Assembly (NCBI GenBank): GCA_040235515.1
Contig: JBECKX010000172.1
Location: 1-21,932, forward strand
Reading direction: 5' to 3'
Length of the DNA stretch: 21,932 nucleotides
Origin: Candidatus Zixiibacteriota bacterium
Lineage (GTDB): Bacteria; Zixibacteria; MSB-5A5; CAIYYT01
A program made the position numbers and the translations under genes. The notes below the pieces were generated by a model. That model saw nothing but the letters and a program-made list of their open reading frames with translations, ran no database searches and was not told the DNA's origin. Below, in pieces: positions 8,419 to 21,932 of the stretch; the first letter of the stretch is position 1, and each line of letters starts with the position of its first letter.

Positions 8419-9573
8419 ATGATTTCGAACCATCGTTACTTGATAGCCATTACGACCCTGCTGATCTCACTGGCAGCTCCAGTCAAGGCGGACCCGGTAT
8501 GGAGTAGCCTCCCTGTCTTACGTCCCACCGGTATCGCGAAAGACACGGCGGGGGTACTGTTCACCTGTAGTGCGGGGAGCATCTCTCGTTCCAGCGATCA
8601 CGGTGAGACCTGGGCGGTGGTGGAGGATTCATCGCTGTTCCAGGACGGTTTCGCCATGACGGTCAATCCGGTCACCAACGATCTCTTCGTCGCCGTCGAA
8701 GCCGGTGTGTTCCGCACTCATGATGAGGGAGAGACCTGGACCAAGCTGACGAACGACATCGTCGGCACCTACGCCATCGCTGCCCGGATCGATGGCTTGA
8801 TAATCGCGGGTGGATCACCGGGGGTTTGGAAGAGCACCGACAATGGTGACAACTGGACCAAGGCGAACGAGACCCTCGGGCCGCTGCATGATGCGATAAC
8901 GTTTTCGCGCGAAGGCACCATCTTTACCGGCTCGATACTCGACGGACTCTTTCGCTCGACCGATGATGGCGTTACCTGGCAGAATTTCAGCAGTGTCTTC
9001 GGGGATACCAGCAACGTGCAGGATGTTGTCGCGGACACAACGAACGGTTACGTCTACGTCACCGCGTACCACCAATTCTTCAACGAACCCACCTACAACA
9101 AAGTGTTTCGATCTTCCGATGATGGACTGACCTGGGAACTGGTCGACAGCACGGGTGGAATCGGATTGGGGATCGGCATCGACGCGCTCGGCAACGTCTT
9201 TACTGGCAGGCACCCGACAGCCTATTCAACCGATCATGGTAACACCTGGACTGAATTCACCGGCGGGATCGACTCCGGCGATCGTCTGGTGGATTTTCTC
9301 GATACCGATGATGGCAATATGCTGATCGCCGATATGGATGACAGCCTTAAGGTGTCAAACGTGATTCAGAGTTTTCTCTGCGGGGATGCCGATGGCAGCG
9401 GCATAATCTCGATTGGTGATGCGGTGTTCCTGATCAGTTTCATCTTCGGTGGCGGGGCGGCGCCTGATCCGATCGGTGCCGGTGACGCTGATAGTAGCGG
9501 GGGCATCAGCATTGCGGACGCGGTCTTTCTGGTTACCTTTATCTTCGGTGGTGGTCCTGCACCCTGTAGCTGA
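8419..9573 (+). CDS. Secreted BNR/Asp-box beta-propeller protein with C-terminal dockerin-like domain
   Basis: Signal peptide and six Asp-boxes (SSDHGETW, THDEGETW, STDNGDNW, STDDGVTW, SSDDGLTW, STDHGNTW). The C-terminus has a duplicated GDADxSGxISIxDAVFL Ca-loop. Confidence 0.88.
   Translation: MISNHRYLIAITTLLISLAAPVKADPVWSSLPVLRPTGIAKDTAGVLFTCSAGSISRSSDHGETWAVVEDSSLFQDGFAMTVNPVTNDLFVAVEAGVFRTHDEGETWTKLTNDIVGTYAIAARIDGLIIAGGSPGVWKSTDNGDNWTKANETLGPLHDAITFSREGTIFTGSILDGLFRSTDDGVTWQNFSSVFGDTSNVQDVVADTTNGYVYVTAYHQFFNEPTYNKVFRSSDDGLTWELVDSTGGIGLGIGIDALGNVFTGRHPTAYSTDHGNTWTEFTGGIDSGDRLVDFLDTDDGNMLIADMDDSLKVSNVIQSFLCGDADGSGIISIGDAVFLISFIFGGGAAPDPIGAGDADSSGGISIADAVFLVTFIFGGGPAPCS
9379..9570 (+). 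repeat. Two 33-aa dockerin-type repeats
   Basis: CGDADGSGIISIGDAVFLISFIFGGGAAP and AGDADSSGGISIADAVFLVTFIFGGGPAPC, with a 99-nt period. Confidence 0.85.
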
Positions 9574-9745: not shown

Positions 9746-10342
9746 CTAACTGATCCCATACTTCGAAAAGTGGTGAATCTTGAATGTGACGTAACCGTCA
9801 TCATTCCGTTCGGTGTCTTCCAGTTGCCAGAAGTAGGAGTAATCACCGAGATAGAACAACCCGGACATGTCACCACCGGGGCGACTGAGGGGATGATACA
9901 CCTCAAGCGGGCGCTCGAAATGAATGCCGGTAGGCTGGCAGTCATACACGAAGACTTCGCCGAAGCCAGACTTGAACTTGAAGCCCCAGATTTCGATCTT
10001 GGTACCGACAGGCACGGCGCCGGCAGGAATCGTGAAGATGATTTCCTGGTCGTCGATTTCAAGGGTCAGAACGCCACCCTCTTCGTCAGCGACAACGCTA
10101 CCCTTGTCGTCGTCGACATAGTCGGGGTCATTCAACAGAGCATCTGCTTCCGCTCCCGAGATAGCTGTAGCTCCGGGACCGGCCACATTGCCCTGCAGCC
10201 ACTCAAGTGCCGCGTCGAGTCGATCCGGCTGCGGTGCAGTGCCGTTGTCGGCGCAACCGGTAAGAAGGAGCGCAACGAGTCCTAACGAACTGAGGAGCGT
10301 CATACTCCAGAACGTTAGCTGCTTAAAGATTTGCTTACCCAC
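9746..10342 (-). CDS. Lipoprotein with ZU5-like beta-sandwich domain
   Basis: I reassigned the start to GTG 10342 (AAGGAGG 8 nt upstream). Lipobox LLTGC. The pattern GGVL...FTIPAGAV...QPTGIHFERPLEV...W...IHHFSKY is typical of ZU5-like domains. Confidence 0.68.
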   Translation of the reverse strand: MGKQIFKQLTFWSMTLLSSLGLVALLLTGCADNGTAPQPDRLDAALEWLQGNVAGPGATAISGAEADALLNDPDYVDDDKGSVVADEEGGVLTLEIDDQEIIFTIPAGAVPVGTKIEIWGFKFKSGFGEVFVYDCQPTGIHFERPLEVYHPLSRPGGDMSGLFYLGDYSYFWQLEDTERNDDGYVTFKIHHFSKYGIS

Positions 10343-10557
10343 AGACCATTCCTCCTTCCCAGCTCCGTTCGGGAGGCTGGGATAAAATTCGTGATTCAGT
10401 ATGGAGCAAAGTTGTTGCCGAACTGAACGGCTGCGCTGTACCACTCTGAGCCGTCGAGCTAAGCCGCTTGAAGGTAAGCACTTCTGGAGTTGAGATTCTG
10501 CTCAGCGCCGCTGCGCAAACCGTGAACAGCTGGAATTTTCGGGGAAAATTATTGGAT

Positions 10558-13338
10558 TTAAACTATATGCTGTAGGCTGACGCCAGCAGTTGAAGCCGCC
10601 AGGACGGCATCGATCGACTTCCTGAAGAAGCGAAAATAGCGGGATGACCTGATGATCTCGATCGCAGTTTCGCCGTTATCCTCCACGAATTGCTTCAAAA
10701 GCGCGCTGGTCTCGGCAGTTGCCCAATTACGTTCCTGCGGGCTGTTTTCGAATATTCGCAAAGATGACTTGAGCGCCAGCTCGAACTGGTGCTCTCTGCG
10801 GCCGAACTGGTAGCACTCGCGAAACTTTTCGATCGCCTGCTGAGGTTCACTGCGCAGACGACAGATTTCTCCACCGATAAAGAGGGATTCGAACTTCAAC
10901 CTGTCAGAATTCAAGTCTGCTGCGACCGCGTCGAGTTGCCGACGGTAGCCGGAGGCAGCATCGGCGTTCTTGGCGCCGATCGCCATACGCGAAAGCCCTA
11001 TCAAGCCACGAATCTGAAATTCCCGCGAGCCGATCTGCTCTGCGAGCTTTACCCCCTGCAGGTAAAGCACCTCGGCTTTGGCAGGCTCACCGTAGTAGAA
11101 CTCGAATTCACCGAGGCGGATGGTCGATTCCGCTTCAAGCTCCTTGTCTCCCACACGGGTGGCGAATTCCATCACCTGGGCGTAACGCCCGGCCGCGTCG
11201 CCGGCATCCCCCAGGATCAACTTGAGATCAGCGATATTACCTACTGTATAATAGTGTGGATGCTCCTCCCCGAGCGACAGGAAGACTCGGTCCGCCGATT
11301 CGAACAACTCAAGGGACTCCTGGTATTTCCCGAAGTAGCTGACGATGTTCGCCAGGTTTCCGGCACAATAGGATGCGTTGCGGCGATCGCCAAGTTCGAT
11401 GAAGATTGCCCTGCTCTGCTGCAGCAACTCCTCTGCCCGGAGATAATTGCCGGATTCCTCGGCCAATATCGAGAGATTGTTGAGAGCCCGTGCTTCCATA
11501 CTCTTGGTCACCGAGTAGTGAGCCCGATCAAGACTGGCAGTGAACGCCTCCGAAGCCTGTTCCAGCTTGCCCGCACCCCAGAGCGCGAGGCCGAGGTTGT
11601 TGCACGCTGAGGCGCGCTTCTCCCAGTCTCCGAGCGCCTCCGAGAGCTTGACCGCTTCCTGCGCCAGCTTGATCGCCGCACCAAAATCCCCCTGGCGCCG
11701 ACAAAACTCTGCCTGGATCGCTGAAAAATCTGCCTTCAATTCGCGGAACCTCTCGGGCAGAGCAGCGCCAAGAACCTCAAGAACTCGTTTGAGCCGCTCG
11801 AAGCGTGACTTGAGCCAGAGCAATCTCGCCTGCTGGATGACAGAATCGAAATACTCTCGGTCATCTGCCTTCGACCTGGCGTAGCGACGAAACTGTGAGG
11901 TAATCTGCAGAGCACTATCATAATCGCCCTCTTGAATCGCGAACTTGCTCGATAAACGAAAATGGCTGTAGCGCATCTGGTTCTCGAGTTGATTGTCAGC
12001 GATTGCGGTGATAATCTCGTTACAGCGCTCGTTGTAATTGCCTGCCTCAACCAGCATATGCCTCTTGAGCGCGGCATCCAGACCCGAGAGTGCGTAATTC
12101 AGAGCGGTCGCCGGATCATCACAGCGCGAGAAGTGATAGACGATTCGGGGATCGCTGTCATCCAACTCCTTCCGCTTCAGGTGTTCGCCTATCCTGCGGT
12201 GCATACGCCTGCGGGAATCGAGCGGCAAACAACGATAGAGAGCGTCGCGCGATTGCTGACGCCTGAACCGGTAACTCCCGTGGCCAACAGGCATCAATAT
12301 GTCAGCTTGAAGCAGCTCCTCCAGCTGGCCGCTCAATGCAGTTTCATCCTGCTGCTGAGACAGCGCACTCAGATCGGAAATCGTGAAGTCATCGGCGTAC
12401 ACCGAAGCGAGCTTGAGCAGGTTGCGCTGCTGCTCGGGAAGGGCATCGATGCGCGACAGCTCGAGGTCCTCGAGACGCGCGGGTAGTTCAACATCAGTCA
12501 GTGACCGGGTAACTTCGAGGAGATTGGGATCGCTCAGCGGAGCGATGACTCCCTGCGAGGAGAGTGAGCCCAGCAGCTGACGCAGGTGAAGTGGATTTCC
12601 TCCCGAACTGGTCTTGAGCATACCTATCAGCTCACGCTCGCGCGCCCCATCGAGAAACACTCCATCCAGTACTTCATCAAGTTCAGCATCTGCCAGTGGC
12701 GTGAGTTTGAGCAGGTTTGAGTCATGACCCGCAGCGGTTCCCTTGCCGAAGGCGCCCGCAATGAGCAGAAGCATCCCCTCCGGAAGCCGCGATTGTTCGA
12801 ACTGATTGATCACCGCCAGCGAATAGGAGTCGGCCTGTTCCATATCATCGAGGATGACTATTCTGCTGCCGGGGGATTGCGATTCGATGATGCCAAGCAG
12901 GATCTCAGCCGCTTTTGCCACGCGCAGCTCGAAGCTCAGGTTGCGGGTCCATTCGTTGTCTTCCACTTCGGCACCGAGGATTTCAGCCACGATTGGTGTC
13001 CATTGCTGTTCAACGACTCCTTCATCGCACAACCGGGATAAGAGTTCAGCCGGCTCGGCGCGACCTCGAATCACACCCCAGGCATCCTCCAGCAGTTTGA
13101 GCAGAAGCCGTTGCAGCACGAATCCGGGTGCGTGGAGTTGTGATCCGGATGCGGAGAGGTAGAGCGCGCTTGCAGCTTCCACGCGATGCAGCAACTCGGC
13201 GCAAAGGGAGGTTTTTCCGATTCCGGGATCGCCGGTGACGACGACCGTGGCGGCATCCTGATGCTTACAACGCTCCCACGCTGCCATCAGAGTTTCAAGC
13301 TCGCGTTGCCGTCCCACGAACTTGTCCGCCGGCTGCAA
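10558..13338 (-). CDS. STAND-class AAA ATPase plus TPR repeats (C-terminal part of the sAC-like cyclase; in frame with 13360-14634)
   Basis: FVGRQREL, Walker A GDPGIGKT, Walker B IVILDD, SGGNPL, a winged-helix region (LLKLASV...YRFR) and several TPRs (ACNNLGLALW, ALNNLSIL, AGNLANI). There is no SD before the TTG. Confidence 0.85.
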   Translation of the reverse strand: MQPADKFVGRQRELETLMAAWERCKHQDAATVVVTGDPGIGKTSLCAELLHRVEAASALYLSASGSQLHAPGFVLQRLLLKLLEDAWGVIRGRAEPAELLSRLCDEGVVEQQWTPIVAEILGAEVEDNEWTRNLSFELRVAKAAEILLGIIESQSPGSRIVILDDMEQADSYSLAVINQFEQSRLPEGMLLLIAGAFGKGTAAGHDSNLLKLTPLADAELDEVLDGVFLDGARERELIGMLKTSSGGNPLHLRQLLGSLSSQGVIAPLSDPNLLEVTRSLTDVELPARLEDLELSRIDALPEQQRNLLKLASVYADDFTISDLSALSQQQDETALSGQLEELLQADILMPVGHGSYRFRRQQSRDALYRCLPLDSRRRMHRRIGEHLKRKELDDSDPRIVYHFSRCDDPATALNYALSGLDAALKRHMLVEAGNYNERCNEIITAIADNQLENQMRYSHFRLSSKFAIQEGDYDSALQITSQFRRYARSKADDREYFDSVIQQARLLWLKSRFERLKRVLEVLGAALPERFRELKADFSAIQAEFCRRQGDFGAAIKLAQEAVKLSEALGDWEKRASACNNLGLALWGAGKLEQASEAFTASLDRAHYSVTKSMEARALNNLSILAEESGNYLRAEELLQQSRAIFIELGDRRNASYCAGNLANIVSYFGKYQESLELFESADRVFLSLGEEHPHYYTVGNIADLKLILGDAGDAAGRYAQVMEFATRVGDKELEAESTIRLGEFEFYYGEPAKAEVLYLQGVKLAEQIGSREFQIRGLIGLSRMAIGAKNADAASGYRRQLDAVAADLNSDRLKFESLFIGGEICRLRSEPQQAIEKFRECYQFGRREHQFELALKSSLRIFENSPQERNWATAETSALLKQFVEDNGETAIEIIRSSRYFRFFRKSIDAVLAASTAGVSLQHIV

Positions 13339-13359
13339 CTCTGAGTCGCCGACTTCAAT

Positions 13360-14634
13360 TCAGTCAAGTCGATAGACCGGCACGTTGTCGCCGACACCCT
13401 TCAGCGCAAACCGCAATTCTGTCAGTTGATAAAGTGTCCTGACCCCCGAGGCAAATTTTTCATCCATCAACACAGTACCGGCAGCGGCTTTCGACATCAG
13501 GCGTGCCGCCAGGTTGACGGCTTCCCCGATGATTGTGTACTCACGGCGCCGCTCAGACCCAACCTCGCCGCAATAAACATAACCCGAAGTCAGGCCCGCC
13601 TTCACTACCGCGTCAGCCTGATTGAGCGCCGCGATCTCACGCGCCACCTGCAGGGCATTGGGATCATCATTCACATTCTTGACCAGCGCGCCGAACAGAA
13701 TCAGGAACTTGTGGGATGTCCCGAACGGATCAACGCGGGCAACGGTGGCGCCACGCTCCGATACAAGTCGAAACACTTCGTTGGCGACGTCGTTGAGCGG
13801 CGTGTTGCTGGAATCATCCGCCGACACCGCCTCCGCCTTAACCGAGACAAAGAGCACCGTTACGCGGCGATGCTCGCTCGAGACTGCCTGAAGTTCCTGC
13901 GACTCTTTGAGACGCTGGTTGATTGCTTCCGGAATATACTTTTTGAGGGTTTGCGGACACGTTGAGGCATCACGGGCCTCGGCAATACGGCGCTGTGGAA
14001 TCTCCGCGGAATCCGGGATGGCCAGATAGTGATAGCCAGCATCCTCGGTTGGGCTGAGCGCGGCGGCCGGAAAACTGCCAGCGGCGGATTCATGTATCAC
14101 CAGTTCGTTCGACTCGGCGATCTCGGCTCCCTGATATGCCTGCATAACCGAATCACCGACGATTTCGAATTCGAGCCTTGTCGATTGGGAGCCGAGGCTG
14201 ATCAGTCCGATCATGCCCGCCGCCGCTCCCGCGTGCAGGGTAATCGGGTTCTCGCGACAAATCTCCTCGGTCTGATTGAGCGAATCTATCTGGTTGAGCA
14301 TCTGGCGGTAGCAGTGCGGCAGGTCACAGGAATCGGGCAGATAGCACCAGATCGCGTCCCCGGCGAACTTGAGGATGTCACCGTTCCACTGGACAACGAC
14401 GTCATCCAGCGAGGAAAACATTCTGTTGAGGAAATTGGTGAGCAATTCCGCGCCTTCGATGCCCCTGGCCGCCAGCCGGGCGGTCAACGCGGTAAAGCCG
14501 CTGGCGTCAACAAACAGTAGATAACCGGCCAGTTGAGAATGTCGATGGAGGGCCGAGTCGCCTTTACCTGCATACCAGTCGATCAAGGCATTCGGCAGGT
14601 AGCGAGTAGCGACTCGCGTTGTACTCTGCGCCAT
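13360..14634 (-). CDS. Tandem class III adenylyl cyclase (C1+C2), soluble-AC/ADCY10-like
   Basis: C1 has both metal-binding Asp residues (FVDASGFT, ILKFAGDA). C2 has SHKF and REYTIIGEAVNLAARLM (Lys/Thr specificity residues, Asn/Arg catalytic residues). It ends LKGVGDNVPVYRL. Confidence 0.9.
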   Translation of the reverse strand: MAQSTTRVATRYLPNALIDWYAGKGDSALHRHSQLAGYLLFVDASGFTALTARLAARGIEGAELLTNFLNRMFSSLDDVVVQWNGDILKFAGDAIWCYLPDSCDLPHCYRQMLNQIDSLNQTEEICRENPITLHAGAAAGMIGLISLGSQSTRLEFEIVGDSVMQAYQGAEIAESNELVIHESAAGSFPAAALSPTEDAGYHYLAIPDSAEIPQRRIAEARDASTCPQTLKKYIPEAINQRLKESQELQAVSSEHRRVTVLFVSVKAEAVSADDSSNTPLNDVANEVFRLVSERGATVARVDPFGTSHKFLILFGALVKNVNDDPNALQVAREIAALNQADAVVKAGLTSGYVYCGEVGSERRREYTIIGEAVNLAARLMSKAAAGTVLMDEKFASGVRTLYQLTELRFALKGVGDNVPVYRLD

Positions 14635-14643
14635 CTGTACTAC

Positions 14644-14988
14644 CTAGAAGAATATCCTGATCACATATAGAGTCGCCACATGAATCGCCTGGTCAGCGTA
14701 GTAGCTCTGCTTGCTTCCATTCAACCACTTCGACTTAAGAAAGTCCTGCAGCCAGTGAATCACATAGACGACTACAAGGACTCCCAGCATGGTCAGAGTA
14801 CAGAGCGGAGTAATCTCGTGCAATGCCCTGCCGAAGCACCAGAAAACTCCGACCGTGATCGTATAGACCAGAACATGACTGGTAAGAACCAGCTTCGACT
14901 TGCCCTTGGTCTGTGCCATGTAGTCGGTTTGCAGGGCGTAATCGCCTACGAAATGCCCCAGGAGTAAGAAAAAGAGAATATCCGGCAT
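14644..14988 (-). CDS. DUF3307-family membrane protein
   Basis: 114 aa and hydrophobic, with GHFVGDYALQT, HVLVY, IHWLQD and DQAIH motifs. Confidence 0.85.
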   Translation of the reverse strand: MPDILFFLLLGHFVGDYALQTDYMAQTKGKSKLVLTSHVLVYTITVGVFWCFGRALHEITPLCTLTMLGVLVVVYVIHWLQDFLKSKWLNGSKQSYYADQAIHVATLYVIRIFF

Positions 14989-14998
14989 TGCATCCCCC

Positions 14999-16441
14999 TC
15001 AGGCTGGCAGACTTATGATGAACTTCGAACCGACGTCAGGAGTGGACTCGACGACGACGTTGCCGCCATGAGCCTCGATGATCTTGCGTACCGTGATCAG
15101 GCCGATGCCATGACCGCGCTTTTTGGTGGTGATCTTCTTGTGGAAGAGATTCTTAAGCAACTCCGGTTCGATACCACAGCCATTGTCGCTGATTACCAAG
15201 ATCACTCGCGCTTGCTGGCTGTCATGGTGAAGCTCAACTTCAATCACCTTCCCACGGTCATCTGATACACGTTGCAGCGCGTCGGCCGCATTCATCAGAA
15301 TATTGAGCAGGGCGCGATGTATCTGCGCTTCGTCCAATTGCAGCGCCTTCGGGAAATCCGGGTCTAGCTTCGTTACGAAGTCGATATCCGCGAATCTGGT
15401 CTGCGGCTGCAGGAAGCGTGTGAGGGCGTCAATCGTCTGCACCAGGTTGCAGGAAGTGACGGTCGCGGTATCTGGACCGCCCGACATCACACTCTCGACG
15501 TAATCGCTCATGTCGGCGATCGCCTTATCGATCATGCTGATATGCTTGGTGTGCCGGGCGCGGAACTCCTCGCTGTAGCCATTCTGCAACAACTCGAAGT
15601 AGCCTTGAATCGCAGCCAGATAGTTCTTGATGTCGTGCGCGATTTCTGAAGCAACTCCATACGCTGTTGACACGCGCTCCAATCTCAGGATCTGTTCATT
15701 GAGTCGCTTGATTTCGGAGATATCCTCGCAGATCAGGAGGTACTCGTTGCTGTTGTCCTTCGACTGGAGTCGCGAAACCGAGGCAAAGACGCTGCGTTGT
15801 TTCTTGCCGTTAACGATCACACATTCACCCGACCAGCGTGTCGACATCGACCGCCACATTTGGTGGATTGGATTCATGTTGGTGAACAGCTCGAAAATCG
15901 ACCGTTTGGTGTCGCGGTTTTCGAGCCAGAAGATCTTGTCTGATGCGGGGTTGCTCCGCCGGATGCGACCATGCTCATCAACGATCAGGATCGCGGCCGA
16001 AGATTGAGAGATCAGCTCTTCAAGGAACGAGTTGATCTCCGAAAGCTGCTTATTCTTTACAGTAAGGGTGAGGTTCTTATGCTCGAGCTCTTCGAGACGA
16101 ATAATATCGGACTCGCGTAGTTTCTTGCTCAGATTCTGCATCACCGTCAACGCGAGTTCCGGGGTCTCCTGAATCGCGCTGGCAAACTCCTCGCGACTGA
16201 ATTCACGAATCTCGCAATCTGTCTCTGCGACAACTGAGGCCGAGCGTGGTTCGCTCTCGAGCAGCGACATTTCACCCACCAACTCACATGCTTCGCGGCG
16301 CGCAATCTCTATCCCTTGTTTGATGATCTTGACACTGCCGGAGATAATGTAGATGAGGGAGTTGCCGTCGGAGCCCTCCGCGAAGATCTCGGTTCCTGCA
16401 GGATATGTAGTCGTATTGCCTGTTTTCGAATCAGCAAGCAT
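14999..16441 (-). CDS. Cytoplasmic sensor histidine kinase with N-terminal cyclic-nucleotide-binding domain and PAS domain
   Basis: cNMP cassette GEMSLLESEPRSASVVA, a coiled coil, PAS (AILIVDEHGRIRRSNPA), H-box EIAHDIKN, N-box NILMNAADA, G1 DNGCGI and G2 GHGIGL. ATG 16441 has GAGGG 7 nt upstream. Confidence 0.92.
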   Translation of the reverse strand: MLADSKTGNTTTYPAGTEIFAEGSDGNSLIYIISGSVKIIKQGIEIARREACELVGEMSLLESEPRSASVVAETDCEIREFSREEFASAIQETPELALTVMQNLSKKLRESDIIRLEELEHKNLTLTVKNKQLSEINSFLEELISQSSAAILIVDEHGRIRRSNPASDKIFWLENRDTKRSIFELFTNMNPIHQMWRSMSTRWSGECVIVNGKKQRSVFASVSRLQSKDNSNEYLLICEDISEIKRLNEQILRLERVSTAYGVASEIAHDIKNYLAAIQGYFELLQNGYSEEFRARHTKHISMIDKAIADMSDYVESVMSGGPDTATVTSCNLVQTIDALTRFLQPQTRFADIDFVTKLDPDFPKALQLDEAQIHRALLNILMNAADALQRVSDDRGKVIEVELHHDSQQARVILVISDNGCGIEPELLKNLFHKKITTKKRGHGIGLITVRKIIEAHGGNVVVESTPDVGSKFIISLPA

Positions 16442-16674
16442 GCAGCGACCCTCAGTCTGAAGCGTAGTTCGCGCCAAAAGTTTTACCCGTTATCAGTTTA
16501 GTTATCGGCAAGAGGGACAATGAGTTTATGGATTGAATCCCGCGACGCAAACCTTTCGGCGACCTTCCGGCGAAGACACGAGTTGCCGGGCTGGTTTGCT
16601 CCCGATTGCTGTTTCAACCTGAATCAAATTGTTGTGAAATCCCCGTTTTTATCAACGCCGTTGCAGCCAACGGC

Positions 16675-17652
16675 TTATCGCTTCATATCGATCACGACTT
16701 TGGCGCGCGCATGTCCCTCTGCGACATAACGTACGGCATCGGGGACCTCCGCCAGAGAGTAGCGACGTTCTATGACAGGTTTGACCTGGCCCGATTCGAG
16801 CAAATCTCTCAATGTCAACAGATCCTTCTGGTTCGGACTTGCCACGAACCCCTTGAACTCCATCTTCCCTTTTCGCGAATAGAGCGGGGCAAGCAACGAG
16901 AACTTGAGGAACTGACTCACCGTACCTCCAATCAAGACCATTCTCCCCGTCGGGATCAACGCCCGCTTGAAATCCCGAAGCGATCGGTTGCCGTTGACCG
17001 CCAGAATCAGGTCGTACTTCTTGCCGCTGTTCGCGAAATCATCCTTGCTGTAGTCGATCACGTGGTCAGCCCCGATCTGCCGCGCCGTTTCGACGTTGCG
17101 GGCGCTGCACACCGCGGTCACTTCAGCACCGAACGCCTTCGCGATCTGAACCGCAAACGTCCCCACTCCCCCGGACGCACCATTGATCAGCACCTTTTGT
17201 CCAGCCTCGATCTTCCCGTGCTCTCGTAACCCCTGAAGCGCCGTCACTCCCGCCAGTGGTGTGGCCGCAGCCTCCTCCATCGTCACGTTTTTCGGTTTGA
17301 TCACCGCGGCACTCTCGCGGACGACAGTATATTCGGCGAACGCACCATTGAAGAACGCCGTGACATCTCCGAACACTTCATCGCCCGGTTTGAGTTGCGT
17401 GACAGCGGCGCCGACCGCCTCTACGCGCCCGGCAAAATCTGCGCCGAGGATTTGTCGCTTCGGCTTGAACATTCCCTCCCCCATCAGCCGAACGAAGAAT
17501 GGGTCCGCTTGCAGGATATGCCAGTCAAATGCATTCACTGACGCCGCATGCACCTCAACAAGAACCTCATTCTCCCGCGGAACCGGCTTCTCGATCTCCC
17601 GCAATTGCATGACGTCGGGAGTTCCATATCTGGTATTGACTATAGCCTTCAT
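16675..17652 (-). CDS. NAD(P)-dependent MDR-family oxidoreductase (zinc-independent, quinone-oxidoreductase/RTN4IP1-like)
   Basis: MKAIV start, VEVHAASVN, ILGADFAGRVEAVG, VLINGASGGVGTFAVQIAK, GADHVIDY and GHARAKVVI. No Zn-ligand Cys residues. Confidence 0.92.
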   Translation of the reverse strand: MKAIVNTRYGTPDVMQLREIEKPVPRENEVLVEVHAASVNAFDWHILQADPFFVRLMGEGMFKPKRQILGADFAGRVEAVGAAVTQLKPGDEVFGDVTAFFNGAFAEYTVVRESAAVIKPKNVTMEEAAATPLAGVTALQGLREHGKIEAGQKVLINGASGGVGTFAVQIAKAFGAEVTAVCSARNVETARQIGADHVIDYSKDDFANSGKKYDLILAVNGNRSLRDFKRALIPTGRMVLIGGTVSQFLKFSLLAPLYSRKGKMEFKGFVASPNQKDLLTLRDLLESGQVKPVIERRYSLAEVPDAVRYVAEGHARAKVVIDMKR

Positions 17653-19841: not shown

Positions 19842-20789
19842 ATGGTTCACTTGAGAAGAAACCTCGCAGAGCCGCTCGCTTGTTTGTTTCTAGGTGGATT
19901 GTTGATTGCAGCCTTCCTCCTGCCGGCACCACTACAAGCTTCAGAGAATGATGAAGCTTGCCTGGTCTGTCACGAGGAGATGGAAGAAACATTCACCCGC
20001 ACCGCCCATGGTATCTACTTCAAGAACGACAACAAAACGGGCAACTACGGTTGCCAATCATGCCATCTCGATGGAACGGCTCACATCGAGAGTGGTGACC
20101 CCGCGTTGATCTACAATCCGGCCAGGATGCACGATTTCGACGAGGCCGAGAGTTGTCTGAGTTGCCACCGAGGTGGGATGTTCAGCGACTGGGAATTCTC
20201 GGTTCACTCAGGCAGTGAGGTCAGTTGCGCGACCTGCCACAAGGTGCATGTACCGGCAACTGAGTTTGCAACTCAATCCGCTACCGAGCTTTGTTACGGG
20301 TGCCATAGCAACGTGCGCTCTGCAAGCTATATGCCCTCGCGCCATCCGATTGCCGAGGGCGACCTGGTTTGCCAGGATTGCCATGCAATTCACGGCGGGG
20401 ATAACCGGCTGGCAGCCGACGGCAACATCTCACAACTCTGCTTCAGTTGTCACGCCGACAAGGAGGGTCCGTTCATCTACGAACACGCTCCTGTTGAAGA
20501 GGATTGCATGATCTGCCATACGCCGCACGGGTCGGTTGCAGATAATCTCCTGAAACAGCAGGAACCAAACCTCTGCTTGAGCTGTCATCCGATGCATTTC
20601 CACGCGACGGTGGAAGGAGTCGATGGCGAATTCGACGTCCCACAGGCGCCGGAACGCTCCGGCATATCCACCCCGGATGGCTTTAAGCGCGCGATGCTCA
20701 CCAAATGTACCCAGTGCCACACGCAGATACATGGCAGCGACCTGCCCGGGCAAGCGATAACCTCTGGCGGCGGAACGCTGGTTCGATAG
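19842..20789 (+). CDS. Periplasmic decaheme c-type cytochrome, MtrA/DmsE/PioA/MtoA family
   Basis: Ten CxxCH motifs (CLVCH, CQSCH, CLSCH, CATCH, CYGCH, CQDCH, CFSCH, CMICH, CLSCH, CTQCH), the family signatures KEGPFIYEHAPV and QIHGSD, a signal peptide and an AAGGAG RBS. Confidence 0.95.
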   Translation: MVHLRRNLAEPLACLFLGGLLIAAFLLPAPLQASENDEACLVCHEEMEETFTRTAHGIYFKNDNKTGNYGCQSCHLDGTAHIESGDPALIYNPARMHDFDEAESCLSCHRGGMFSDWEFSVHSGSEVSCATCHKVHVPATEFATQSATELCYGCHSNVRSASYMPSRHPIAEGDLVCQDCHAIHGGDNRLAADGNISQLCFSCHADKEGPFIYEHAPVEEDCMICHTPHGSVADNLLKQQEPNLCLSCHPMHFHATVEGVDGEFDVPQAPERSGISTPDGFKRAMLTKCTQCHTQIHGSDLPGQAITSGGGTLVR

Positions 20790-20800
20790 GAGTACTGATC

Positions 20801-21932
20801 ATGATTAAGAAACTGATTCAAATCTCGGCGGTACTTATCGCACTCACCAGTTGGCCGCTGCTCGCACAGGAAACGGACCCGGCATTCTATAAGTATTCCC
20901 TCTGGCTCGGCTCCCACTACACATCCTTCAACGATAACGCAAAGAAGGTGGGTGAATACAACCTAGGGAATGATGAAATCCTGCCCGAGCTGAAATTCAA
21001 TCTGGTCGCCACCAAGGAGAACAGGAGATTCACCGCCAACCTGCACTACTACGATCAGAAGAATATACTGACGGTGCTGCAGGGAAACGTCGGCAACCGG
21101 CTTAATGCGCGTGTGCGCTACCGGTCTCTGGTGCGGCAACGCGCCCAGGATATGCTGACGAACCTGTCGACTCGCGAGTGGCTCACTGACACTCCCGGCG
21201 GCAAGATGATCACGCACGAAATAGAGAATCCCGATGCTGATTTCAACACCCACCGCAACGAGGTGGAAGCAGAACTTGAGCTGCTGCTGTCGAAGAAAGG
21301 CAATCTGCGGGTCATGGCCGCCCACCGCAGCATCATCGAGACCGGCACCGAGCAGAAAATCGCATCCGATCACTGCTTCAGTTGCCACATGCAGTCAAAG
21401 TCGGTGGATGTTGATAAGCGCACCTACATCGTAAAAGCCGGCCTTGAAGCCAACAACGACAAGATCGATGGTGGCTATACGGTCGGCTATTACAAATTCC
21501 ATTCCAAAGAGCCTGACCCGACCGCGTATTTCGATCCCGCGAAACACCCCGTCAATGGCGGCTCAGCAGAGGAATTCGGCTCGCGTGTGATCTATGACGA
21601 TGCGACCCTGCCCTATGCGGTCTATCCGGAAACGGAGAAGTTCTCTCACAAAGCACGCTTCGGCGCCGAAGTGGGAAAGGGCAGACTCTCAAGCAGCGTC
21701 AGCTACGTGATGAGTGAGAACAAGCGTTCTGATCTCAACACCGATGCCATCACCGGAATCGCTCAGTACCGCGTGCCGCTGTCACCCAGAACGCGACTGA
21801 CCGCCAGGGCTTCCGCGCTGAAACTCACCGCGGATGATCCCTTCATCGATCTCCCGGACTGGCGCGAAGGACGCCCCGGAACGCCCGTAGATTTCGACTA
21901 CACCAGGTACTCCGCGCTCGACCGCGTGGAGT
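20801..21932 (+). CDS. Outer-membrane porin partner of the decaheme cytochrome (MtrB/PioB-like, CxxCH-containing); 3'-truncated and absent from the ORF track
   Basis: Manual translation from ATG 20801 (AGGAG at 20788-20792) is open to the window end: MIKKLIQISAVLIALTSWPLLA-QETD...KKVGEYN...DHCFSCHMQ..., with amphipathic beta-strands. Confidence 0.85.
   Translation, partial: MIKKLIQISAVLIALTSWPLLAQETDPAFYKYSLWLGSHYTSFNDNAKKVGEYNLGNDEILPELKFNLVATKENRRFTANLHYYDQKNILTVLQGNVGNRLNARVRYRSLVRQRAQDMLTNLSTREWLTDTPGGKMITHEIENPDADFNTHRNEVEAELELLLSKKGNLRVMAAHRSIIETGTEQKIASDHCFSCHMQSKSVDVDKRTYIVKAGLEANNDKIDGGYTVGYYKFHSKEPDPTAYFDPAKHPVNGGSAEEFGSRVIYDDATLPYAVYPETEKFSHKARFGAEVGKGRLSSSVSYVMSENKRSDLNTDAITGIAQYRVPLSPRTRLTARASALKLTADDPFIDLPDWREGRPGTPVDFDYTRYSALDRVE

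Follow-up and report, generated by a model that had tools for sequence, protein, structure and literature searches.

Proteins in which a class III nucleotide cyclase is followed by a STAND nucleoside triphosphatase (NTPase) and an array of tetratricopeptide repeats (TPR) are common, and Leipe and colleagues reportedly placed them, in 2004, in the SWACOS clade. The known bacterial receptors of cyclic AMP (cAMP) are mostly CRP-type factors, channels or defence effectors, and the RRNPP peptide receptors, such as Rap-Phr, are TPR receptors switched by an exported peptide. The system considered here lies in a stretch of 21,932 nucleotides (nt) from a Candidatus Zixiibacteriota bacterium (assembly GCA_040235515.1, contig JBECKX010000172.1, positions 1 to 21,932; hereafter the window, the genome being G000), and consists of three adjoining genes, here called the module, for a histidine kinase with a domain for cyclic nucleoside monophosphates (cNMP), a DUF3307 protein and a cyclase-STAND-TPR protein resembling the human soluble adenylyl cyclase (sAC, encoded by ADCY10), together with a fourth gene for a lipoprotein.

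Several described systems share part of this composition. ADCY10 has the same tandem catalytic domains C1 and C2 with equivalent active-site residues, followed by a STAND P-loop domain, and differs in two positions (Lys334, here Arg, and Arg176, not present here), and in that the bacterial gene belongs to a fixed operon with a cNMP-binding kinase and DUF3307. Pycsar also sets a class III cyclase beside a cNMP-binding receptor; here, however, the output of the receptor is a histidine kinase and not a TIR domain or a pore, the cyclase is sAC-like with STAND-TPR, the inheritance is vertical, and of the mobile gene pair that joins PycC to a TIR or transmembrane effector only partial PADLOC hits were found. 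The RRNPP receptors offer an Asn-ladder TPR beside the gene of an exported protein whose C-terminus carries a short conserved peptide, whereas the TPR here is fused to a cyclase-STAND protein, the host is diderm, and the peptide would have to arise by self-cleavage. The NtrB/NtrC and PrsK/PrsR systems resemble this one in kinase class, in the -24/-12 promoter, and in an upstream box like the PrsR motif, described as 17 nt long (PMC1569441), but the kinase here is a cytoplasmic orphan with a cNMP input, there are two boxes, and the regulator is unlinked. Every part belongs to a known family; the full-text literature searched holds neither this gene combination nor a cNMP-gated histidine kinase (supplements and comparative-genomics neighbourhood tables, outside the search, might list it), which agrees with the first-pass annotation, made from the letters of the window alone, whose author knew of no described system composed of these three genes; in the portions considered of four sources, SWACOS, cNMP cyclases or ZU5 appear only in other systems (PMC8195603, PMC7159879, PMC3482391, bioRxiv 10.64898/2026.01.04.697583).

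The trio lies on the minus strand, co-oriented, with gaps of 10 and 9 nt, and its Pfam domains are, in order, cNMP-PAS-HisKA-HATPase; DUF3307; and two Guanylate_cyc domains, AAA_16 and TPR. That annotation had presented positions 10558..16441 as a self-contained operon that makes and senses cAMP, and its layout, tight spacing, domains and kinase cassette are recovered; its single third reading frame is not, codon 425 being TGA in this genome, and neither are its limits, as the conserved unit reaches past them to the fourth gene at 9746-10342. The conservation of the trio, on which it had staked its proposal, is extensive. In 285 genomes of the phylum (Zixibacteria), from which all 88 module loci were fetched, the DUF3307 subfamily gave 88 strong single-copy hits and 3 weak ones, the cyclase was found in 88 genomes (86 in common with the DUF3307 set), and the order kinase-DUF3307-cyclase is the same at 85 of the 88 loci, one per genome, the other three ending at a contig edge. 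A quick tree of 83 kinases requires 15 changes of family label (minimum 12, shuffled mean 58), which suggests mostly vertical descent with losses; since the tree follows the host families, it describes a resident signalling circuit and not a Pycsar-like defence, and with it, with the single copy per genome and with PADLOC hits at domain level only, the defence flavour of the first proposal finds no support. The housekeeping neighbours of the module are fixed within a genus, and no module match was obtained in G001 (same genus, 99% complete) or in G009 (100% complete). The module is an inherited signalling circuit of about one third of the genomes of the phylum.

The make-and-sense idea itself has good support in these data, as the class III cyclase of the module is the only one in the genome (four of five module-less genomes tested have no match for one) and its kinase carries the only canonical GE...PR cassette. 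The description as self-contained holds only in part: besides the fourth gene, an output gene is missing from the neighbourhood, where no response regulator appears among the window proteins scanned against Pfam, as first noted, nor among 51 neighbour proteins scanned from the loci of relatives, and the output of the circuit is therefore encoded elsewhere.

The reading that we favour, with a probability of about one half, starts from the gene order, co-occurrence, motifs and vertical inheritance of the module, and from the linkage, fold, HFS motif, sigma-54 promoter and two upstream boxes of the lipoprotein gene. According to it, an inherited Zixibacteria circuit would lead from a STAND/TPR-controlled cyclase through cAMP and the kinase to a sigma-54 activator encoded elsewhere, with the lipoprotein both as a target and as the source of the TPR ligand. 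A ligand in the TPR groove would relieve a STAND-mediated inhibition of the cyclase, such as is suggested for the human enzyme by the higher specific activity of its truncated form sACt (C1 and C2 only) relative to the full-length one (PMC12802110). The cyclase would then make cAMP, to be bound by the co-encoded kinase, and this would phosphorylate an NtrC-type activator acting on envelope genes, that of the lipoprotein included, whose self-released tail is the candidate ligand of the TPR.

The cyclase core (13360..14634, minus strand; 424 residues as far as the premature TGA) was delimited from its frame and its alignment with sAC, human ADCY10 being its best solved relative (E-value 2e-32). 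Its residues D43, D93, T367, N374 and R378 correspond to D47, D99, T405, N412 and R416 of the human protein; in the 66 full-length members of the family both metal-binding Asp and the equivalents of K95, N412 and R416 are invariant, Thr405 is kept in 64, and the copy of this genome keeps 49 of the 51 cyclase columns conserved in the family. The catalytic residues that had been claimed are accordingly in place as regards metal Asp, Thr, Asn and Arg, and not as regards the base-recognising Lys334, which is Arg in 66 of 66. Bicarbonate activation of sAC requires K95 and R176 (PMC12867704), of which the first is kept in all 66 proteins and the second is not (its column holds Y in 34, M in 11 and F in 8, with R not among the letters listed), and a bicarbonate response is therefore unlikely here. 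The product is quite likely cAMP.

The kinase (14999..16441, minus strand, 480 residues, assigned from Pfam, NCBIfam and alignment) starts at the ATG at 16441, preceded by a GAGGG site, and joins a cNMP-binding domain, a coiled coil, a PAS domain, HisKA and HATPase in an NtrB/AtoS-like arrangement. No hydrophobic 19-mer exceeds a Kyte-Doolittle value of 1.2; the lack of transmembrane helices and the intact GE...PRSA cassette described at first sight are both confirmed. The G, E, R and A of this phosphate-binding cassette are found in all 83 kinases aligned and the H-box His in 74 of 83, and the present copy has the H-box His and the N, G1 and G2 boxes of a sensor histidine kinase. Its top NCBIfam matches include AtoS (the best, E-value 1.5e-57, below the cut-off), ZraS and NtrB, all of which partner sigma-54 activators. 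Four cNMP domains exist in the genome, the canonical cassette being that of the module kinase alone, and this kinase is likely gated by the product of the neighbouring cyclase. Another cNMP domain, with a degenerate cassette, is fused to an aspartase/fumarase-type lyase (G000:C78:11384-13270).

Two further orphan kinases of the genome share the H-box type (229 and 216 bits, with all others at 143 or below), and the three may converge on one regulator. One is a GAF-PAS histidine kinase co-encoded with a 1111-residue Ser/Thr kinase-TPR protein and adjoining an M50 peptidase fusion (G000:C121:23299-31206), which makes it a parallel unit of TPR enzyme plus orphan kinase; the other (G000:C126:3068-4858) has an N-terminal receiver, and its close orthologues are present in the module-less G001 and G009 too.

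The remainder of the third gene, a frame of 933 codons (10558..13359, minus strand), encodes a STAND NTPase (AAA_16) and a TPR array, recognised by Pfam and alignment. Walker A, Walker B and GxP motifs are present in this copy, which keeps 6 of 6 STAND and 24 of 27 TPR conserved columns. In the TPR, N1052, N1053, W1019 and E1169 occur in 66 of 66 proteins, R1085 and N1093 in 65 and N1012 in 64, forming an Asn ladder of the kind typical of peptide-binding TPRs; the groove is conserved and not diversifying. Walker A is intact in 56 of the 66 members. In one family (f9) all nine full-length proteins lack it and keep the cyclase site and the TPR ladder; these appear from their sequences to be pseudo-NTPase switches.

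DUF3307 (14644..14988, minus strand; 114 residues, Pfam E-value 6e-15) is predicted to be a four-helix bundle (predicted local distance difference test, pLDDT, 92.6) with conserved H12, D16, H38, H78, D82, D99 and H103. The His/Asp motifs pointed out at first are thus a real cluster, and H12, D16, D99 and H103 extend to 57, 58, 51 and 52 of 59 distant members; the protein may be either the membrane effector or the signal-degrading enzyme then offered as a choice. Foldseek returned no match at an E-value of 0.001 or lower, VIA gave a best Z of 7.8 on unrelated helical bundles, Atlas hits stayed below 0.9, further Pfam families matched at most 2 of 16 members each, and the full-text literature searched mentions DUF3307 in a single paper and gives no account of its function. 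A fusion with the cyclase was considered and discarded, the N-terminal extensions at two loci being overlapping frames; none was found among the longer proteins searched, which is weak evidence. Elsewhere too, in the neighbourhoods that had been put forward as a check, the family is met beside proteins of cyclase fold. Of 17 distant loci from a pattern search (many of them close kin), 14 have a class III cyclase within 7 kb and one more a cNMP-domain protein; among 30 Bacillota loci (from 201 genomes), 17 long forms adjoin SatD and five of the six intact short forms adjoin a CHASE2 cyclase, a cNMP protein or a GAF-HD protein; and 17 Pseudomonadota loci offered little, with two SatD neighbours and no cyclase beyond the seed locus within 1.5 kb (80 of 177 neighbouring frames were scanned overall in the last two groups). 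The SatD-DUF3307 pair, present in 17 of the 30 Bacillota loci, again sets DUF3307 beside a protein of what we take to be a cyclase-like fold, although its DUF3307 has about 230-300 residues, against 114 in the single-domain form here. Six cyanobacterial-type loci combine short DUF3307 and a CHASE2 cyclase with MscS-cNMP, glutaminase-cNMP, CHAT or GAF-HD genes, and in nine Oceanococcus-type loci DUF3307 is divergent from one or two cyclase-STAND genes and an MMPL-cNMP fusion. Tentatively, the conserved cluster would suit an enzyme that depends on a metal, associates with the membrane and clears or adjusts the signal; that it takes part in cyclic-nucleotide turnover is a guess.

The fourth gene (9746..10342, minus strand, with a probable GTG start behind a strong ribosome-binding site) encodes a lipoprotein of 198 residues with the lipobox LLTG-C and a C-terminus HF|SKYGIS. 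Its model (pLDDT 93.7) matches the ZU5 domain of ankyrin-B in Foldseek (4d8o, E-value 3.2e-4, probability 1.0, template modelling score 0.71), and the Pfam ZU5 match (E-value 0.002) falls below the cut-off. HFS is invariant in 16 of 16 lipoproteins, the model sets it between the last two strands, and in 56 of 73 copies no more than 11 residues follow the site. The gene adjoins the module in 50 of the 71 loci with enough sequence, whether downstream, convergent, divergent or upstream of it, in up to five tandem copies, and of the 88 module genomes 84 have a strong homologue (E-value 1e-16 or lower), as against 16 of the 197 remaining ones. In bacterial MAIN domains the cut falls between the F and S of HFS (bioRxiv 10.64898/2026.05.12.724683), and the MAIN/GAIN and ZU5 autoproteolytic domains share with the lipoprotein an exported protein, a beta-sandwich and HFS in the last turn (the same preprint; PMC3482391). 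They differ in that the protein here is anchored N-terminally and has no cargo domain, so that cleavage would free only about six residues; the main text of the preprint contains none of the terms ZU5, lipoprotein, TPR and cyclase. The lipoprotein probably self-cleaves at HF|S, and it is a more doubtful matter whether the six-residue tail, or the C-terminus itself, is the TPR ligand. In the 5′ leader, directly before the ribosome-binding site, there is a G+C-rich hairpin (approximately 10351-10377, minus strand).

A motif scan places a sigma-54 -24/-12 promoter of the lipoprotein gene at 10405..10420 (minus strand). With a GG-N10-GC site scoring at least 4 of 8 as threshold, such promoters precede 67 of 73 adjacent lipoprotein genes, compared with hits in 13 of 81 regions upstream of kinases, in 9 of 73 reverse strands and in 19% of shuffled sequences, and 64 of the sites lie 130-215 nt before the lipobox. 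The alignment of these 64 promoters revealed two positionally fixed sequences, at the distances of about 80-150 nt that activator sites would be given: box A, a palindrome TRTGGGA-N4-TCCCAYA about 150-130 nt before the -24 site, and box B, TGTTCA-N5-TGAACA, about 110-80 nt before it, with medians of 15.5 and 13.5 bits against about 6 for a control (the matrices were trained on the same 64-promoter set, and the control by the same training on shuffles). In the window, box A (10550..10567; 14.4 bits, 147 nt before -24), a candidate sigma-54 activator site, overlaps the stop codon of the STAND-TPR frame, and box B (10511..10529; 15.8 bits, 109 nt before -24) resembles a PrsR site. Elsewhere in the genome box A with sigma-54 is also found before an operon of prepilin-like frames (frames without a Pfam hit) and before the gene of a GspH-like pilin that lies upstream of pilM, and box B precedes a lipoprotein paralogue and a PEP-CTERM-like gene. 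Box A with sigma-54 is apparently an undescribed core regulon of the phylum; the reversed-pattern control across the phylum was mostly 0.

The partner of the kinase has about an even chance of being an NtrC-type activator acting at box A or B. At G000:C152:24069-33551, PrsK, PrsR (both present above the cut-off) and a second, orphan NtrC-like activator converge on the box-A/sigma-54 operon of prepilin-like genes, and a box-A site stands near tandem activators in G001, G009 and G006 too. The orphan, of 488 residues, is a candidate only. The orphan NtrC-like proteins at G000:C152:28534-29997 and C49:19500-20981, and PrsR, are the foremost candidates. Identification by loss was also attempted, comparing the sigma-54 activators of this genome with those of the module-less G001 and G009 and part of G006 (8 regions); it gave no module-specific regulator, the motif filter having caught 9 of about 17, of which 7 have reciprocal orthologues in both module-less genomes. 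Autoregulation of the operon through sigma-54 was not seen, with box A in 2, box B in 6 and sigma-54 in 2 of the 81 kinase upstream regions, and scans for sigma-70 promoters and terminators gave results at chance level.

In its most complete form the circuit would be a closed loop: the lipoprotein would cut off its own six-residue tail, as the Stachel of adhesion GPCRs, the TPR of an NLR-like sAC would read the peptide, cAMP would pass the signal to the kinase and this to a sigma-54 activator raising the lipoprotein and pilin genes, and DUF3307 would end the cNMP signal. The whole is unlikely, and the following observations weigh against the favoured reading even in its shorter form: (i) on the side of the lipoprotein, the tail is longer or the gene broken in 17 of 73 copies, 21 of 71 loci have no adjacent copy (in three families none of 13 has one) and the gene is present in 16 genomes without a detected module, the ankyrin ZU5 domains that are its best fold matches are not known to self-cleave, and the candidate tail is exported, the TPR being cytoplasmic; (ii) on the side of the cyclase protein, with Arg in place of Lys334 the base specificity is unproven, 10 of 66 members lack Walker A, and 9 of 74 assessable genes, this one included, are broken; (iii) on the side of the promoter, box B resembles the site of PrsR, which has its own adjacent kinase PrsK, box A with sigma-54 occurs in 198 of 285 genomes, the module-less G001 and G009 among them, box A by itself is no commoner in the genome at 12 bits than in shuffled sequence (57 hits, compared with 47-73), and no partner was singled out among 50 receiver-domain matches and about 17 sigma-54 activators; (iv) finally, all these counts treat kin as independent observations. 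From its phylum-wide presence, box A with sigma-54 therefore marks a core regulator and is not enough on its own to connect the kinase with that regulator; the module kinase could be at most one input.

For this genome alone, an alternative with about an even chance is that the gene is a freshly broken allele heading to loss, or else that the TGA arose in sequencing or assembly and the real protein runs to full length. The in-frame TGA (13362-13360, minus strand, specific to this genome) falls in the cyclase-STAND linker, where residue 422 aligns with human 461, and as C2 of human sAC ends at 462 (PMC12867704, Table 1), the stop leaves the entire catalytic core, followed in the same phase by the STAND-TPR frame that 65 relatives carry fused in a single chain. 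If real, it would leave a bare core comparable to sACt, uncoupled from the TPR sensor, and its clean position after C2, where mammalian sACt also ends, speaks against this alternative; nor is another letter listed at these positions in four DNA runs over 10000-17000, though no listed contig piece spans the site. On the other side, of the 88 loci 65 encode the protein intact, 14 lose part of it at a contig end and 9, the present one among them, are broken, the eight others at different places (one by an in-frame stop elsewhere in the gene, the rest by frameshifts), and the same-genus G001 has no match to the module. As conserved columns are kept in cyclase, STAND and TPR, the stop is recent or an error, and the lack of decay in the downstream half fits both alike. 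Programmed readthrough or selenocysteine was rejected: TGA is a normal stop in the genome (573 of 1714 long frames), the column is variable, with Cys not among the eight commonest letters that cover 61 of 66 rows, the downstream fold is unremarkable (z -1.8) despite a tRNA-Sec in the genome, and no relative has a stop there. The other in-frame stop that splits the gene, that of G004, is a single TAG inside the STAND domain.

Rather less probable is a relay with the same cyclase and kinase in which the TPR responds to a different protein or peptide of the cytoplasm, with the lipoprotein only as a co-regulated output, or as a neighbour kept for its shared sigma-54 control. Its independent promoter, its occurrence without the module and the phylum-wide box A would all agree with this, and the one sign of covariation between peptide and TPR (column 1016, L against I/V) was set aside, being confounded by clade; against it, the linkage survives four arrangements and one to five tandem copies, and what follows HFS is a short, conserved tail. 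Improbable, by comparison, is that the cyclase makes cGMP, cCMP or cUMP and that the kinase is matched to that nucleotide: of the adenine-specifying pair the Lys is indeed replaced by Arg in 66 of 66 and the kinase cassette is PR-F in 70 of 83, as opposed to PR-S/T/A, but the sAC-type Thr stands in 64 of 66, sAC is the best structural relative, and guanylyl cyclases have Glu at the Lys position. Least of all would this be an anti-phage system of Avs or Pycsar type, its TPR recognising a phage protein, its cyclase making a cNMP and DUF3307 or the kinase executing, for the STAND-TPR architecture, the patchy distribution (88 of 285) and the weak PADLOC domain hits to PycC and PycTIR models are outweighed by the single copy, the kinase tree, the fixed housekeeping neighbours, a conserved TPR groove and the want of any defence family among the 51 neighbours scanned.

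Beyond these genes, a secreted BNR/Asp-box propeller with a C-terminal dockerin-like repeat (8419-9573, plus strand) is convergent with the lipoprotein gene and is not conserved beside the module in the 30 loci compared; and at 19842-21932 (plus strand) a multiheme cytochrome c precedes a long frame that the contig end cuts off, and the two may be a porin-cytochrome pair.

With regard to its meaning, the ligand of the STAND/TPR part of sAC-type cyclases is open even for human ADCY10, where the full-length and truncated forms could not be told apart by nucleotide tests (PMC12802110), and the operon would be a soluble bacterial model in which a candidate ligand can be named, the read-out is defined and a sACt-like truncation occurs naturally. 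Across a third of the phylum it provides a putative cAMP-gated histidine kinase hard-wired to its own cyclase, suggests for DUF3307 a role in cyclic-nucleotide signalling that can be tested, and establishes a definition of two sigma-54 boxes for Zixibacteria. If the full loop were true, it would amount to peptide signalling in a bacterium with two membranes, to a ligand for a sAC-type STAND protein, to a cAMP-gated bacterial histidine kinase, and, in DUF3307, to a family of enzymes that end the cNMP signal.

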